DNA of 64,000 nt from the NCBI RefSeq assembly GCF_003790525.1, contig NZ_CP033635.1; one strand, 5' to 3'. The position numbers and the translations under genes are program-made. The DNA is from Escherichia coli (GTDB lineage Bacteria; Pseudomonadota; Gammaproteobacteria; Enterobacterales; Enterobacteriaceae). A model generated the notes under the pieces. That model had not been told where the DNA came from. It did not search any database and worked only from the letters and a program-made list of their open reading frames with translations. Shown here in pieces: positions 16,033-42,586 of this stretch (positions are counted from its first letter, which is position 1; each line of letters starts with the position of its first letter).

Positions 16033-16488
16033 ATGCAAGAAGGGCAAAACCGTAAAACATCGTCCCTGAGTATTCTCGCCATCGCTGGGGTGGAGCCATA
16101 TCAGGAGAAGCCGGGCGAAGAGTATATGAATGAAGCCCAGCTGGCGCACTTCCGTCGTATTCTGGAAGCATGGCGTAATCAACTCAGGGATGAAGTCGAT
16201 CGCACCGTTACACATATGCAGGATGAAGCAGCCAACTTCCCGGACCCGGTAGACCGTGCAGCCCAGGAAGAAGAGTTCAGCCTCGAACTGCGTAACCGCG
16301 ATCGCGAGCGTAAGCTGATCAAAAAGATCGAGAAGACGCTGAAAAAAGTGGAAGACGAAGATTTCGGCTACTGCGAATCCTGCGGTGTTGAAATTGGTAT
16401 TCGCCGTCTGGAAGCGCGCCCGACAGCCGATCTGTGCATCGACTGCAAAACGCTGGCTGAAATTCGCGAAAAACAGATGGCTGGCTAA
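16033..16488 (+). CDS. dksA: RNA polymerase-binding transcription factor DksA
   Basis: [23 protein letters not shown]... with C4 zinc finger CESCGVEI...CIDC; 151 aa. Confidence 0.92.
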
Positions 16489-16516: not shown

Positions 16517-16544
16517 GGCGGGAAATGCTCCCGCCTTATTTTTT
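16517..16544 (+). terminator. Intrinsic terminator after dksA
   Basis: ggcggga-aatgc-tcccgcc stem-loop followed by ttatttttt. Confidence 0.7.
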
Positions 16545-17510: not shown

Positions 17511-18908
17511 ATTTTTACCCGAGTCGCTAATTTTTGCCGCAAGGTGCTAAGCCGCGAGGAAAGCGAGGCTGAACAGGCAGTCGCCCGTCCACAGGTGACG
17601 GTGATCCCGCGTGAGCAGCATGCTATTTCCCGCAAAGATATCAGTGAAAATGCCCTGAAGGTAATGTACAGGCTCAATAAAGCGGGATACGAAGCCTGGC
17701 TGGTTGGCGGCGGCGTGCGCGACCTGTTACTTGGCAAAAAGCCGAAAGATTTTGACGTGACCACCAACGCCACGCCAGAGCAGGTGCGCAAACTGTTCCG
17801 TAACTGCCGCCTGGTGGGTCGCCGTTTCCGTCTGGCTCATGTGATGTTTGGCCCGGAGATTATCGAAGTTGCGACCTTCCGTGGACATCACGAAGGTAAC
17901 GTCAGCGATCGCACGACCTCCCAACGCGGGCAAAACGGTATGTTGCTGCGCGACAACATTTTCGGCTCCATCGAAGAAGACGCCCAGCGCCGCGATTTCA
18001 CTATCAACAGCCTGTATTACAGCGTGGCAGATTTTACCGTCCGTGATTACGTTGGCGGCATGAAGGATCTGAAAGACGGCGTTATCCGTCTGATTGGTAA
18101 CCCGGAAACGCGCTACCGTGAAGATCCGGTACGGATGCTTCGCGCGGTTCGTTTTGCCGCCAAATTGGGCATGCGCATCAGCCCGGAAACTGCCGAGCCG
18201 ATCCCACGCCTGGCAACCTTACTGAACGATATCCCACCGGCACGTCTGTTTGAAGAATCGCTGAAACTGTTGCAAGCGGGCTACGGTTACGAAACTTATA
18301 AGCTGCTGTGTGAATATCATCTGTTCCAGCCGCTGTTTCCGACCATTACCCGCTACTTCACGGAAAATGGCGACAGCCCGATGGAGCGGATCATTGAACA
18401 GGTGCTGAAGAATACCGATACGCGTATCCATAACGATATGCGCGTGAACCCGGCGTTCCTGTTTGCCGCCATGTTCTGGTACCCATTGCTGGAGACGGCA
18501 CAGAAGATCGCCCAGGAAAGCGGCCTGACCTATCACGACGCTTTCGCACTGGCGATGAACGACGTGCTGGACGAAGCCTGCCGTTCACTGGCGATCCCGA
18601 AACGTCTGACTACGCTAACTCGCGATATCTGGCAGTTGCAGTTGCGTATGTCCCGTCGTCAGGGAAAACGCGCATGGAAACTGCTGGAGCATCCTAAGTT
18701 CCGTGCGGCATACGACCTGTTGGCCTTACGAGCCGAAGTTGAGCGTAACGCTGAACTGCAACGTCTGGTGAAATGGTGGGGTGAGTTCCAGGTTTCCGCG
18801 CCGCCAGACCAAAAAGGGATGCTTAACGAACTGGATGAAGAACCGTCACCGCGTCGTCGTACTCGTCGTCCACGCAAACGCGCACCGCGTCGTGAGGGTA
18901 CCGCATGA
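17511..18908 (+). CDS. pcnB: Poly(A) polymerase I
   Basis: Nucleotidyltransferase ORF; start assigned to the known non-canonical AUU codon ([12 protein letters not shown]); track ORF begins at an upstream TTG. Confidence 0.8.
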
Positions 18909-19384
18909 CAGTGGCGTATATTGCCATAGGCAGCAATCTGGCCTCTCCGCTGGAGCAGGTCAATGCTGCTCTGAAAGCATTAGGCGATATTCCAGAAAGC
19001 CGCATTCTTGCTGTTTCTTCGTTTTACCGCACCCCACCGCTGGGGCCGCAAGATCAACCCGATTACTTAAATGCAGCCGTCGCGCTGGAAACCACTCTTG
19101 CCCCTGAAGAGCTACTCAATCACACACAACGTATCGAATTGCAGCAAGGTCGCGTCCGTAAAGCTGAACGCTGGGGACCGCGCACGCTGGATCTCGACAT
19201 CATGCTGTTTGGTAATGAAGTAATAAATACCGAACGTCTGACCGTTCCGCACTACGATATGAAAAATCGTGGCTTTATGCTGTGGCCACTGTTTGAAATT
19301 GCGCCGGAGTTAGTGTTTCCTGATGGGGAGACGTTGCGTCAAATCTTACATACAAGAGCATTTGAAAAATTAAGCAAATGGTAA
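18905..19384 (+). CDS. folK: 6-hydroxymethyl-7,8-dihydropterin pyrophosphokinase
   Basis: 159-aa [22 protein letters not shown]; start overlaps pcnB stop (ATGA). Confidence 0.92.
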
Positions 19385-19544
19385 TTTATTTATATTACGA
19401 ATATAAATATTTTCTGAAAATCACACCGACTCTCTTTCCTTAATAACGATTTTAGTTTAAAAATTTTTTATAGAAACATAATATAAATTCCCGCTGAGAA
19501 ATATCAATCCCATCGCCATACCCTAACTAATTGCACTTGTGAAC

Positions 19545-19579
19545 TTAAATTTACTTAATCTTGAATTAAGTAAATTTAA
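19545..19579. promoter_or_regulatory. Perfect 15-bp inverted repeat in AT-rich yadN upstream region
   Basis: TTAAATTTACTTAAT-cttga-ATTAAGTAAATTTAA, about 175 bp upstream of the yadN start. Confidence 0.45.
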
Positions 19580-19754
19580 TTTGTTCAAAAGCTTCTAAAG
19601 TGCACAATAGGCAACCTAATGAACAATGGTTGTAAATTTTGGTAACAAACATCATTGCTCATTAATATCTAACATTTGTTTCTTATATTCGTGTCATGAA
19701 TAGTTACTCTTCAAACATGTAGTCTGACTAATGGAATTTTATTCAAGGATTTTT

Positions 19755-20339
19755 ATGTCTAAAAAATTAGGTTTTGCCCTGTCTGGTCTTATGCTGGCAA
19801 TGGTTGCAGGTAATGCTTCTGCTGCACTGGACGGTGGCCAATTAAATATCAGTGGTCTGGTAGTTGATAACACCTGTGAAACCCGTGTTGATGGTGGCAA
19901 CAAAGATGGCCTGGTGCTTCTGCAAACTGCAACTGTTGCTGAAATCAGTGCTGGCGTACTGAATGACACCGTAGGTGCTAAAGCTAAACCTTTCAGCATC
20001 ACCGTTGACTGCAGCAATGCAAACCCGAATCCTGGTAGCACCGCAAAAATGACCTTCGGTTCCGTGTTCTTTGGCAACAGCAAAGGGACTCTGAACAACG
20101 ATATGTCTATTAACACGCCTTCTGACGGCGTAAATATTGCCCTGCACAATATTGATGGTTCCACTATCAAACAGGTTCAAATTAACAACCCAGGCGATAT
20201 TTACACAAAAACGCTGGACGCTACGACTAAATCTGCAACCTATGATTTTAAAGCATCCTATGTCCGTGCTGAAGCAAGCCAGGCACCAACTGCTGGTTAT
20301 GTTAAAACCAACACTGCATATACCATTACTTACCAGTAA
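19755..20339 (+). CDS. yadN: Fimbrial major subunit-like protein YadN (chaperone-usher pilin)
   Basis: 194-aa ORF with signal peptide [23 protein letters not shown] and pilin-like C-terminus ...AYTITYQ. Confidence 0.85.
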
Positions 20340-20371
20340 TCCTTCGTTAGATTCATAAACTGAATATCTAT

Positions 20372-20406
20372 GGGAGTAACTTTCTTAATAGTGGAATGTT
20401 ACTCCC
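20372..20406 (+). terminator. Stem-loop after yadN (possible attenuator)
   Basis: gggagtaac / gttactccc 9-bp stem, 17-nt loop, followed by tattttaatt. Confidence 0.5.
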
Positions 20407-20436
20407 TATTTTAATTAACTCTGTCGGGAATGGTTT

Positions 20437-21177
20437 ATGTTTTTAAACGCTAAACATACTGCAGCTGTATGCTTCGCCACTTGTATGAGCTTAAGCGCAT
20501 CGGCAATAGCAGATATCGTAATTTCAGGAACTCGCGTAATTTATAAAAGTAATGAAAAAAGCGTTAATGTTCGGCTGGAAAATAAGGGGAATAATCCGTT
20601 ACTCGTTCAGAGCTGGCTGGATACTGGCGACGATAGTGCTGAACCAGGGAGTATTACTGTCCCATTTACCGCCACCCCTCCTGTTTCGCGAATTGATGCC
20701 AAACGTGGTCAAACTATTAAATTGATGTACACGGCTTCCTCACCGCTGCCAAAAGACCGAGAAAGTGTTTTCTGGTTTAACGTACTCGAGGTTCCACCCA
20801 AACCTGACGCAGATAAAGTCGCCAACCAGAGTCTTCTGCAATTGGCATTCCGTACGCGTATCAAATTATTTTATCGCCCGGAAGGTTTAAACGGACTGCC
20901 ATCAGATGCACCCGCAGCACTGAAATGGTCATGGGCAACCTCTGCTGGAAAAACTGCATTGCGCGTCGCAAATCCGACACCGTATCACGTCTCATTCAGT
21001 AGTGGTGATTTAGTCGCCAATGGCAAAACCTACCCCCTGGATGTAAAAATGGTAGCCCCGCTGAGTGAAGAAACCTTCGATATAAAAGGCATGAGTGGTA
21101 AAGCAAGTTCTGCCAAAGTGCATTTCTTCGCCATAAATGACTTTGGTGGTGCAATTGAAGGCAATGCCAGCCTGTAA
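20437..21177 (+). CDS. yadV: Periplasmic fimbrial chaperone (PapD-like)
   Basis: 246-aa ORF with signal peptide and pilus chaperone fold motifs (RVIY, LVQSWLD). Confidence 0.85.
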   Translation: MFLNAKHTAAVCFATCMSLSASAIADIVISGTRVIYKSNEKSVNVRLENKGNNPLLVQSWLDTGDDSAEPGSITVPFTATPPVSRIDAKRGQTIKLMYTASSPLPKDRESVFWFNVLEVPPKPDADKVANQSLLQLAFRTRIKLFYRPEGLNGLPSDAPAALKWSWATSAGKTALRVANPTPYHVSFSSGDLVANGKTYPLDVKMVAPLSEETFDIKGMSGKASSAKVHFFAINDFGGAIEGNASL

Positions 21178-21211
21178 CTAAATCAGGAATAAACGCAGCA
21201 GGAAGCACAAC

Positions 21212-23812
21212 GTGTCCCGAAAAATCATAAAAACGCATAATAACAAACTTACATATATAGCCTCGTTTTGCGCATTGCTATTAAGCCCCTGTGCCATAAG
21301 CGCTGAACACGTTGAATATGATAATACCTTTTTGATGGGGCAAGATGCTTTTAACATCGACCTTAGTCGGTATACCGAAGGTAACCCTACCTTGCCCGGC
21401 GTGTATGACGTCAGTGTTTATATCAATGATCAACCGGTTATCAACCAAAGCATTTCCTTTATTACCCTCGAAGGTAAGAAGAATGCGCAGGCTTGTATCA
21501 CCCTGAAGAATTTATTGCAGTTTCACATTAATAAACCAGATATAAATGCCGAGAATTCCATCCTTCTACAGCGCGAAGGCGAACTCGGAGATTGTCTTGA
21601 TTTAGCAAATATCATTCCTCAGGCCTCGGTTCATTATGACGTCAACGATCAACGACTGGACATCAATGTTCCTCAAGCCTGGGTAATGAAGAATTACCAA
21701 AACTATGTTGACTCTTCACTGTGGGAAAACGGTATTAACGCCGCAATGCTAGCCTACAACGTCAACGCATATCACAGCGAAATTCCGGACAGAAAAAACG
21801 ACAGTGTTTACGCCGCATTTAACGGCGGTATAAATCTGGGGGCATGGCGACTTCGCGCAACCGGCAACTACAACTGGATGACCAATGTAGGCAGTGATTA
21901 CGATTTTCAGAATCGCTATTTGCAGCGCGACCTGGCCTCTTTGCGTTCACAGTTAATAGTGGGTGAGTCATACACAACTGGGGAAACCTTTGATGCTGTC
22001 AGTATTCGCGGTATTCGTTTATACAGCGACAGCCGAATGCTACCGCCTGCGTTAGCTAGTTTTGCGCCTATTATTCATGGTGTCGCTAACACCAACGCAA
22101 AAGTCACCATTACCCAGGGCGGGTATAAAATATATGAAACTACTGTACCGCCGGGAGCATTTGTTATTGATGATTTAAGCCCATCAGGCTACGGCAGCGA
22201 TCTCATTATCACAATCGAAGAATCTGATGGCATAAAACGAACTTTTTCCCAGCCATTTTCTTCGGTAATTCAGATGCAACGCCCTGGTGTTGGAAGATGG
22301 GACATCAGTGCTGGTCAGGTATTAAAAGACGATATTCAAAATGAGCCAAATTTGTTCCAGGCCAGCTACTACTATGGTCTGAACAACTATCTTACAGGTT
22401 ATACCGGTATTCAAATTACCGATAATAACTATACTGCCGGGCTGTTGGGCCTTGGCCTGAATACCGCGTACGGTGCGTTTTCAGTCGATGTAACCCACTC
22501 GGATGTGCAAATTCCGGACGATAAAACCTACCGCGGGCAAAGTTATCGCATCTCCTGGAATAAGTTATTTGAAGATACCAGAACCTCGCTCAATATCGCC
22601 GCTTACCGTTATTCAACCCAGAATTATCTGGGGCTTAACGATGCACTGACATTGATCGATGAAGTAAAACATCCGGAACAGGACCTGGAACCTAAAAATA
22701 TGCGTAACTATTCACGCATGAAAAATCAGGTTACGGTTAGTATTAACCAACCCCTCAAGTTTGAAAAGAAAGACTATGGCTCATTCTATCTTGCCGGAAG
22801 TTGGTCTGACTATTGGGCGGACGGACAAAATAATACTAACTACTCCATTGGTTATAGTAACAGCGCATCGTGGGGAAGCTACAGCATTAGTGCCCAACGG
22901 TCCTGGAGCCAGGACGGCGGTAATGAAGACAGCATCTATCTAAGCTTTAGCATTCCTATCGAAAAGTTACTGGGTTCAGAACATCGCGACTCTGGTTTTC
23001 AGAGCATTGATACTCAGTTAAATAGTGATTTCAACGGCAGCAATCAACTCAGTATCAGCAGTAGTGGTTATAGCACCGAAAACCATATCAGTTATAGCGT
23101 CAATACAGGCTATTCGATGATGAAATCCAGTGATGATTTGGGCTATATCGGCGGATATGCAAGCTATGAATCTCCCTGGGGAACTCTTTCCAGTTCAGTT
23201 TCCGCAAGCAGTGATAATAGCCGTCAAATCTCATTTAATACCGACGGCGGATTTGTTTTACATAGCGGCGGCCTGACCTTCAGTAATGACAGCTTTAGCG
23301 ACTCAGACACTCTGGCCGTTGTACAAGCGCCAGGAGCTAAAGGGGCGCGTATTAACTATGGTAATAGTACGATAGATCGTTGGGGATATGGTGTTACTAA
23401 CGCGCTCTCCCCTTATCATGAAAACCGAATTGCACTCGATATTAACGGTCTGGAAAATGACGTTGAATTGAAAAGTACCAGTGCTATTACTGTCCCCCGC
23501 CAAGGGTCTGTTGTCTTTGCTGGTTTTGAAACAGTTCAGGGACAATCAGCGATTATGAACATCAAGCGAACTGACGGTAAAAACATTCCGTTTGCCGCAG
23601 ATATTTATGACGAGAACGGAAATATTATTGGCAATGTAGGGCAAGGTGGTCAGGCCTTTGTTCGAGGTATAGAACAACAAGGTAACATACGTATCAACTG
23701 GCTTGACGACGGTAAACCTGTCACTTGCCTTGCTCATTACCAGCAGAGCACAGCACCAGAAAAAATAGCGCAAACTATTATTCTGAATGGAATTAGTTGT
23801 CAGATTCAGTAA
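21212..23812 (+). CDS. htrE: Outer membrane fimbrial usher HtrE
   Basis: 866-aa ORF, GTG start, usher-family features; follows the chaperone gene. Confidence 0.88.
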   Translation: MSRKIIKTHNNKLTYIASFCALLLSPCAISAEHVEYDNTFLMGQDAFNIDLSRYTEGNPTLPGVYDVSVYINDQPVINQSISFITLEGKKNAQACITLKNLLQFHINKPDINAENSILLQREGELGDCLDLANIIPQASVHYDVNDQRLDINVPQAWVMKNYQNYVDSSLWENGINAAMLAYNVNAYHSEIPDRKNDSVYAAFNGGINLGAWRLRATGNYNWMTNVGSDYDFQNRYLQRDLASLRSQLIVGESYTTGETFDAVSIRGIRLYSDSRMLPPALASFAPIIHGVANTNAKVTITQGGYKIYETTVPPGAFVIDDLSPSGYGSDLIITIEESDGIKRTFSQPFSSVIQMQRPGVGRWDISAGQVLKDDIQNEPNLFQASYYYGLNNYLTGYTGIQITDNNYTAGLLGLGLNTAYGAFSVDVTHSDVQIPDDKTYRGQSYRISWNKLFEDTRTSLNIAAYRYSTQNYLGLNDALTLIDEVKHPEQDLEPKNMRNYSRMKNQVTVSINQPLKFEKKDYGSFYLAGSWSDYWADGQNNTNYSIGYSNSASWGSYSISAQRSWSQDGGNEDSIYLSFSIPIEKLLGSEHRDSGFQSIDTQLNSDFNGSNQLSISSSGYSTENHISYSVNTGYSMMKSSDDLGYIGGYASYESPWGTLSSSVSASSDNSRQISFNTDGGFVLHSGGLTFSNDSFSDSDTLAVVQAPGAKGARINYGNSTIDRWGYGVTNALSPYHENRIALDINGLENDVELKSTSAITVPRQGSVVFAGFETVQGQSAIMNIKRTDGKNIPFAADIYDENGNIIGNVGQGGQAFVRGIEQQGNIRINWLDDGKPVTCLAHYQQSTAPEKIAQTIILNGISCQIQ

Positions 23813-23831
23813 CAACAGGGAATTTCACATA

Positions 23832-42558: not shown

Positions 42559-42586
42559 ATGCCCGGGAATCTCATTCACCGGGCAT
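42559..42586 (-). terminator. Intrinsic terminator after acnB
   Basis: atgcccgg / ccgggcat 8-bp stem with 12-nt loop, followed on the minus strand by a T-run (plus-strand aaaaa at 42554-42558). Confidence 0.6.

Follow-up and report, generated by a model that had tools for sequence, protein, structure and literature searches.

The yad locus and its operon

The stretch of Escherichia coli DNA considered here, referred to as the window, is 64,000 nucleotides long and carries the yad fimbrial operon on its plus strand, between folK and panB (Table 1). The operon encodes the major Yad fimbrial subunit (yadN), a periplasmic chaperone (yadV), an usher, three minor pilins and the adhesin yadC. The yadN gene consists of 194 codons and a TAA stop at 20337-20339, and its 585 nt match the length of the annotated alleles. 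A further in-frame ATG lies upstream at 19731 and is the start given in the ORF list. The yadN and yadV genes are separated by a gap of 97 nt, and this gap contains the RNA hairpin with which we are concerned. An earlier note on this DNA had placed the hairpin between yadN and the chaperone gene, and the identities of the flanking genes from Pfam and RefSeq agree with it: RefSeq E. coli genomes with identical DNA label the pair yadN and fimbrial chaperone.

Table 1. Features of the yad locus, in window coordinates.
Feature	Position	Strand	Details
folK	18905-19384		Pfam matches and ORF list
folK-yadN gap			370 nt, AT-rich; between folK and yadN
yadN, major Yad fimbrial subunit gene	19755..20339	+	Pfam Fimbrial PF00419, E 5.6e-12
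yadN hairpin, 5' arm	20372..20385	+	GGGAGUAAC; 9 perfect pairs, unpaired U81, UUCU upper stem
yadN hairpin, loop	20386..20392	+	UAAUAGU, 7 nt; MFE and centroid structures the same
yadN hairpin, 3' arm	20393..20406	+	GGAA, unpaired U97, GUUACUCCC
U/A-rich tail	20407..20418	+	DNA TATTTTAATTAA, RNA UAUUUUAAUUAA; candidate termination tract
yadV Shine-Dalgarno-like sequence and ATG	20426..20439	+	GGGAAUGG; from sequence and allele alignment
yadV/ecpD-type periplasmic chaperone gene	20437..21177	+	PapD_N 2.7e-44, PapD_C 1.6e-18
Usher gene	21212-23812	+	Pfam Usher/PapC_N/PapC_C
Minor pilin gene	23787-24398	+	Pfam Fimbrial
Minor pilin gene	24404-25018	+	Pfam Fimbrial
Minor pilin gene	25045-25641	+	Pfam Fimbrial
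Adhesin gene yadC	25677-26966	+	Pfam Fimbrial match
panB			3' of yadC, from locus order

The genes that follow yadV (21212..26966) have short intergenic gaps or overlap. A consensus scan, which cannot exclude a promoter, found no sigma-70-like site in 20340-20436, and the K-12 RefSeq record annotates no feature, ncRNA included, in its yadN-yadV gap. In the ribosome-binding region of yadV, the pattern GG.A..GGTTTATG is unchanged in all of the alleles aligned. The operon as a whole (19000-27000) forms an AT-rich island, with a G+C content of 0.39-0.45 vs 0.52-0.55 in the folK and panB flanks, which is consistent with the published binding and silencing of the locus by H-NS. In both CFT073 and MG1655, yad is bound by H-NS and shows low RNA polymerase occupancy (PMC9765446 supplement). 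The operon is silenced by H-NS under laboratory conditions, and in hns mutants the expression of all its genes goes up together (PMC13245861).

Two other inverted repeats at the edges of the operon are recorded here as observations in their own right. An AT-only palindrome lies in the folK-yadN gap, 175 nt upstream of the yadN ATG, with arms at 19545-19559 and 19565-19579 (15 bp, perfect; extended to 19542-19582, 18 bp at 94%). As RNA, it folds at -16.6 with a z of -5.97. It is kept at 173-180 nt in K-12 and in the allele representatives L002-L005 and L008, and in L003/L004 both arms are changed, from CTTAA/TTAAG to CTAA/TTAG. L006, L007, L010, L013 and L014 have no perfect inverted repeat of 8 bp or more at this position. 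The palindrome could serve as a site for a regulator, or as a hairpin in the 5' UTR comparable to the papA 5' stem-loop. At the other end of the operon, a GC-rich perfect hairpin of 12 bp (TATCGCACCGCC/GGCGGTGCGATA, 26973-27003, dG -23, z -6.1) begins 7 nt past the yadC stop. It is followed by CGGATAAATC instead of a T-run, and is thus not a canonical intrinsic terminator.

Structure of the hairpin downstream of yadN

The hairpin begins 32 nt past the yadN stop codon and ends 30 nt ahead of the ATG of the chaperone gene. Its core is a perfect stem of 9 bp, formed by GGGAGTAAC (20372-20380) and GTTACTCCC (20398-20406), exactly to the base as first described; the full structure is larger. An inverted-repeat search extends the arms to 20372-20384 and 20394-20406 (13 nt, 92% complementary), and RNAfold predicts the 9 bp, a U81.U97 mismatch (last two digits of the window positions) and then 4 bp (U82-A96, U83-A95, C84-G94 and U85-G93), which gives 13 pairs. 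The 55-nt hairpin segment has a dG of -18.4 kcal/mol compared with a shuffle mean of -7.6 +/- 2.2 (z = -4.87), and none of 200 shuffles folds as well.

In two respects the element is built like an intrinsic terminator, since it is a stable stem-loop with a G+C-rich base (GGGAG/CUCCC) and it lies downstream of a coding region in the sense orientation, on the coding strand of yadN. The T-rich stretch that had been noted after the stem is also present: 8 of the 12 nucleotides of the tail are T, 5 of them among the first 8, and the second position is an A. The tail is, in addition, a candidate single-stranded AU-rich site of the RNase E type. The opposite strand folds at -15.9 and is then followed by AUAGAU rather than a U-run; with neither a U-tail nor a convergent gene, a minus-strand function was rejected. 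A second small hairpin just past the stop codon is predicted in several alleles and was likewise set aside, as its z is -0.58 in the window and marginal elsewhere.

A bare 9-bp stem would be unremarkable in this DNA, as a search for perfect inverted repeats with arms of 9 bp or more and loops of 3-20 nt gives 48 k-mer matches in the window, representing about 22 distinct sites (dinucleotide shuffles give 4.7 +/- 2.8 matches). The significance of the hairpin rests rather on its extension, its place in the 97-nt gap, its strand-specific U-rich tail and, above all, its conservation. The sequence is also found only once, both in the window (a single match at up to 3 mismatches) and in each of 204 genomes, and a repeated palindrome of the REP/BIME type, which would belong to a multi-copy dispersed family, was therefore rejected. 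A search of Rfam at a permissive threshold gave as its best match an unrelated family, at 22 bits vs a gathering score of 47 (E 0.83), which is no better than chance.

Conservation across yad alleles

The locus was compared across 5426 complete E. coli genomes, of which 5056 match it. The allele of yadN and its gap found in the window (19755-20436) is rare: only 204 of the 5426 genomes, ST648-type strains included, match it with an identity of at least 90%. In about 4850 further genomes the identity over the junction is only 60-80%, and the yad locus falls into several discrete allele classes. One representative was fetched for each identity class and its pilin-chaperone gap was folded. A significant hairpin is found in all 12 of the allele representatives with an intact pilin gene, 14-35 nt past the pilin stop, with z values from -3.0 to -6.5. 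The structure is thus maintained over the sequence in 12 of 12 alleles, as in a polarity hairpin of the pap type.

The lower stem is formed by CAGGGAATAA/TTATTCCCTG in K-12-type alleles and by GGGAGTAA/TTACTCCC in the window and in L002, which is 88% identical to it; an A-U to G-C double change separates the two forms. Single changes in L006, L007 and L003/L005 turn lower-stem pairs into G.U pairs, so that pairing is kept. As a MAFFT alignment of the whole gap moves the 5' arm of the window by one column, the trimmed hairpins were re-aligned instead. Over the 7 lower-stem pairs that can be aligned, 94.6% of cells pair, compared with 45-64% when the partners are slid by 1-3 columns. Formal covariation is modest, because few independent events have been sampled, and it consists of double changes at 2 pairs that represent one evolutionary event common to two related alleles.

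The upper stems cannot be aligned and differ in both sequence and length, yet they are self-complementary in each allele. Compared with L002, the 5' arm of the window differs by an indel of 8 nt, and of the 3 substitutions near it, 2 make new pairs with the unchanged 3' arm. Two allele families have different hairpins altogether. In L010/L011 an unrelated hairpin, ACAAGGGNGCGACA/TGTCGCCCCCTTGT, occupies the same position at around -20 kcal/mol with no U-run, and in the O157-type alleles L013/L014 a further unrelated hairpin, ATAAGGTTTGCC/GGCAAACCTTAT, is followed by TTTT(T) and has the look of a classic terminator. Three unrelated hairpin families are therefore found at this position within the E. 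coli genome set. Of 9 aligned yadN-type sequences, 6 retain the tail segment TTTTAATTAACTCT, a seventh is one base off and the rest vary. Most alleles have a U-run directly 3' of the stem, which in the K-12 allele is UUUU.

The conserved pairing, the self-complementary upper stems and the two unrelated stems at the same place together provide good evidence that a hairpin at the post-yadN position is selected as RNA. An improbable alternative is that the element is a palindrome acting at the level of DNA, either as a protein site or as a recombination joint of allelic cassettes, or is simply a neutral leftover. The locus is indeed AT-rich and bound by H-NS (PMC9765446 supplement), the yadN alleles are mosaic and highly divergent, and perfect inverted repeats of this size are common in the window. 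However, the changes in L006, L007 and L003 that preserve pairing through G.U suit RNA and not DNA symmetry. Hairpins of unrelated sequence occupy this position in other alleles, the tail is specific to one strand, and the single-copy sequence belongs to no repeat family.

Predicted strength as an intrinsic terminator

Terminator strength was assessed with a d'Aubenton-Carafa-type discriminant, the scores of which serve here for relative ranking only. On this scale, three controls score +36 (trp attenuator), +29 (rrnB T1) and +22 (T7 Te). The regions downstream of the major subunit genes then follow in the order yraH (+18), ecpA (+8), papA (+4.5), elfA (-13), yad in its K-12 allele (-16), yad in this window (-18) and fimA (-59). 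By the same score the yad hairpin comes 39th among the 728 terminator candidates of the window, a set in which many sites fall within ORFs; about 12 sites score above zero. The low value reflects the U-tract, which is interrupted by the A at position 2 (T-score 2.81 vs 4-5 at strong sites), together with the long AU-rich stem. A simple consensus terminator scan did not call the site, and this is explained by its rules, which tolerate neither a mismatch nor a loop longer than 8 nt, rather than by the structure being absent. By sequence criteria, then, the yad element would be a marginal or weak intrinsic terminator.

The best sites of the intrinsic-terminator type in the window are found elsewhere, at 49007-49024, 47349-47365, 42560-42585 and 16517-16535. 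The first three score on both strands and are bidirectional. The last lies just past an ORF that ends at 16488, a putative dksA judging by the order of genes expected in E. coli.

Hairpins in other fimbrial operons

A close parallel is found in the pap operon, as had been proposed. In CFT073 the papA-papH gap of 69 nt has the same layout, with a hairpin (14 bp, z -4.55) and a U-rich tail directly after the major subunit gene. Partial termination has been described between papA and papH (PMC6524683), as has protection of the papA mRNA 3' end (PMC6524683, PMC5927463). The two elements share no sequence homology, and that of pap has a 3-nt loop, no mismatch and a score on the positive side of the scale. 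They also differ in their setting: papA mRNA also arises when RNase E cleaves papBA, with a 5' stem-loop, whereas yadN is the first gene of its own operon and no such RNase E processing is known for it.

A stable stem in the same position and orientation is also found in three K-12 operons, namely in the gaps yraH-yraI (14 bp, perfect, with UUUU), ecpA-ecpB (a GC-rich stem of 7-8 bp with UUUAUU) and elfA-elfD (a GC-rich stem of 9 bp). These stems are short, GC-rich and nearer to canonical terminators, whereas the yad stem is long and AU-rich and has an internal mismatch. The sfmA-sfmC gap is complex, and the 34-nt yehD-yehC gap holds no hairpin. A post-subunit hairpin is thus not a universal feature of K-12 chaperone-usher operons.

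The comparison with fim, which had been made in the same breath as that with pap, is weak. Unlike the gaps that follow yadN, papA, yraH and ecpA, the gap between fimA and fimI in K-12 lacks both a U-run and a significant fold (z +0.2 / -0.5), and its hairpin amounts to just 5 bp. RefSeq annotates a small RNA of 35 nt, fimR2, in this gap (L015 1675-1709). FimR2 is processed by RNase E from this gap and requires its stem-loop for stability (PMC9723502). It resembles the yad element in coming from the gap after a major pilin gene and in its length of 35 nt, but its 5' part is single-stranded over 17 nt and its stem has 5 bp, whereas nearly all of the yad element is stem.

Stabilizing hairpins are also known from operons whose segments decay at different rates, including cfaAB, malEFG with its REP elements and puf (PMC5927463). 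As in yad, a stable structure lies 3' of a gene whose product is needed in excess. Elements of the REP type belong to multi-copy families, in contrast to the yad hairpin, which is specific to its locus.

Proposed role of the hairpin

The reading that we put forward, with somewhat less than even confidence, is that the hairpin acts as a leaky Rho-independent terminator that also shields the 3' end, and so raises the level of yadN mRNA over that of the assembly genes. Some of the RNA polymerases would halt in the U-rich tail that immediately follows the stem (UAUUUUAAUU), which would release a short mRNA containing only yadN, and the same hairpin would then guard the 3' end of this message against 3'-to-5' exonucleases. 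The remaining polymerases would read through into the genes for the chaperone, usher, minor pilins and adhesin. The first gene to have its mRNA level lowered would be yadV, and the genes from the usher to yadC would also depend on read-through. The outcome would be more message for the bulk subunit than for the assembly machinery. We infer that termination takes place, that it is partial and that it alters protein ratios. The lack of a promoter-like site ahead of yadV in the consensus scan and the joint rise of the yad genes in hns mutants suggest that any termination would be incomplete and leave substantial read-through. The O157-type alleles, whose hairpins look like classic terminators, favor the leaky-terminator account.

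The main alternative, which we consider rather unlikely, is that the hairpin is a stabilizer only and terminates nothing. The operon would be transcribed as one RNA and cut by RNase E, either in the single-stranded AU-rich tract past the hairpin or elsewhere downstream, and 3' exonucleases would stall at the stem, such that the yadN segment would outlive the rest. Differential decay of this kind is described for cfaAB, for malEFG and for the 3' end of papA. The stability of the stem in the face of its weak terminator-like features is in keeping with such a role, and the strong hairpin of L010/L011, with no U-run at all, fits a stabilizer better than a terminator. The tail reads AU/UUU (GU/UUU in K-12) and so fits the loose RNase E motif RN/WUU (PMC5927463), although this motif carries very little information in AT-rich sequence, and the fimA-fimI gap provides a precedent for processing by RNase E (PMC9723502). 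Against a pure stabilizer, most alleles place a U-run directly after the stem, and those of the O157 type look like classic terminators. Partial termination and stabilization alone would have the same result, an excess of yadN message.

It is quite improbable that the 3' UTR of yadN gives rise to a small RNA built around the hairpin, an analogue of FimR2 acting in trans when Yad is expressed. In such a scheme, to which we attach the same small likelihood, termination or RNase E would release the hairpin and thereby couple Yad to surface or motility programs. The attraction of the idea lies in the equivalent fim gap, where K-12 RefSeq places the 35-nt FimR2, a product of RNase E whose stability depends on its stem-loop (PMC9723502), and in the identical length and strongly conserved structure of the yad hairpin. 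However, the yad element has no similarity to FimR2 (local alignment scores 8, whereas shuffles average 10.7), no Rfam match and no annotation in the K-12 record. It also has no conserved single-stranded seed, as both the loop and the stretch that precedes the hairpin differ freely from allele to allele, and a GGA motif in the loop is not conserved. We know of no small RNA reported from yad.

Least probable of all is control of yadV translation, in which the UCCC of the 3' arm would have two alternative partners, the 5' arm and the GGGA of the yadV ribosome-binding region, the hairpin keeping this anti-Shine-Dalgarno sequence occupied and so setting the translation rate: the CAGGGA of the K-12-type 5' arm does recur in the yadV Shine-Dalgarno region, and the predicted fold of L009 pairs UCCCUG with CAGGGA (its 5' arm lies inside an extended yadN reading frame and was hence left out of the folded segment), but any arm that contains UCC pairs with any Shine-Dalgarno sequence, the 3' arm and the Shine-Dalgarno sequence do not covary across alleles, and the alternative helix in the window, of just 4 bp, is far less stable than the hairpin.

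The interpretation in the earlier note, over-expression of the major subunit by partial termination or mRNA stabilization, thus stands in kind as regards structure, position, conservation and the layout shared with pap, and it falls short in the detail of fim and in the marginal terminator score of -18. That the yad hairpin leads to over-expression of the subunit remains, for us, an inference from these features.

Yad expression and strain variation

A 2026 study of Yad found unequal qRT-PCR fold changes across the yad genes, and it makes no mention of a terminator or stem-loop in its account of Yad expression (PMC13245861). The operon is absent from the E. coli operon-decay supplements of Dar & Sorek, the supplement of Hustmyer et al. 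holds only ChIP values for H-NS and RNA polymerase, and where yadN and terminators occur together in the literature, the only relevant paper concerns the inhibition of Rho in general. Within the field, the yad hairpin represents an ordinary and previously undescribed example of a well-known device. It introduces no new principle, as the same device is textbook knowledge for pap, and a review of the Salmonella fimbrial clusters states the principle of subunit excess for fimbrial clusters generally (PMC3373541).

Recent work connects the Yad fimbria with bloodstream as well as urinary infections caused by extraintestinal E. coli (PMC13245861). If our reading is right, the hairpin would set the ratio of the YadN subunit to the chaperone, usher and adhesin. 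Its predicted strength as a terminator varies by allele, being weak in the window and in K-12 and canonical in the O157-type alleles, and such differences could contribute both to strain variation in Yad expression and to the unequal induction seen by qRT-PCR.

Individual strains also depart from the common arrangement of the locus. In E1316 (L009 256-876), yadN is annotated 36 nt longer and runs into the 5' arm of the hairpin. In 2017-02-2CC (L014 1129-1867) the chaperone gene is frameshifted, and in JX21CE35 (L012 437-1134) an IS1 element is found in place of yadN.
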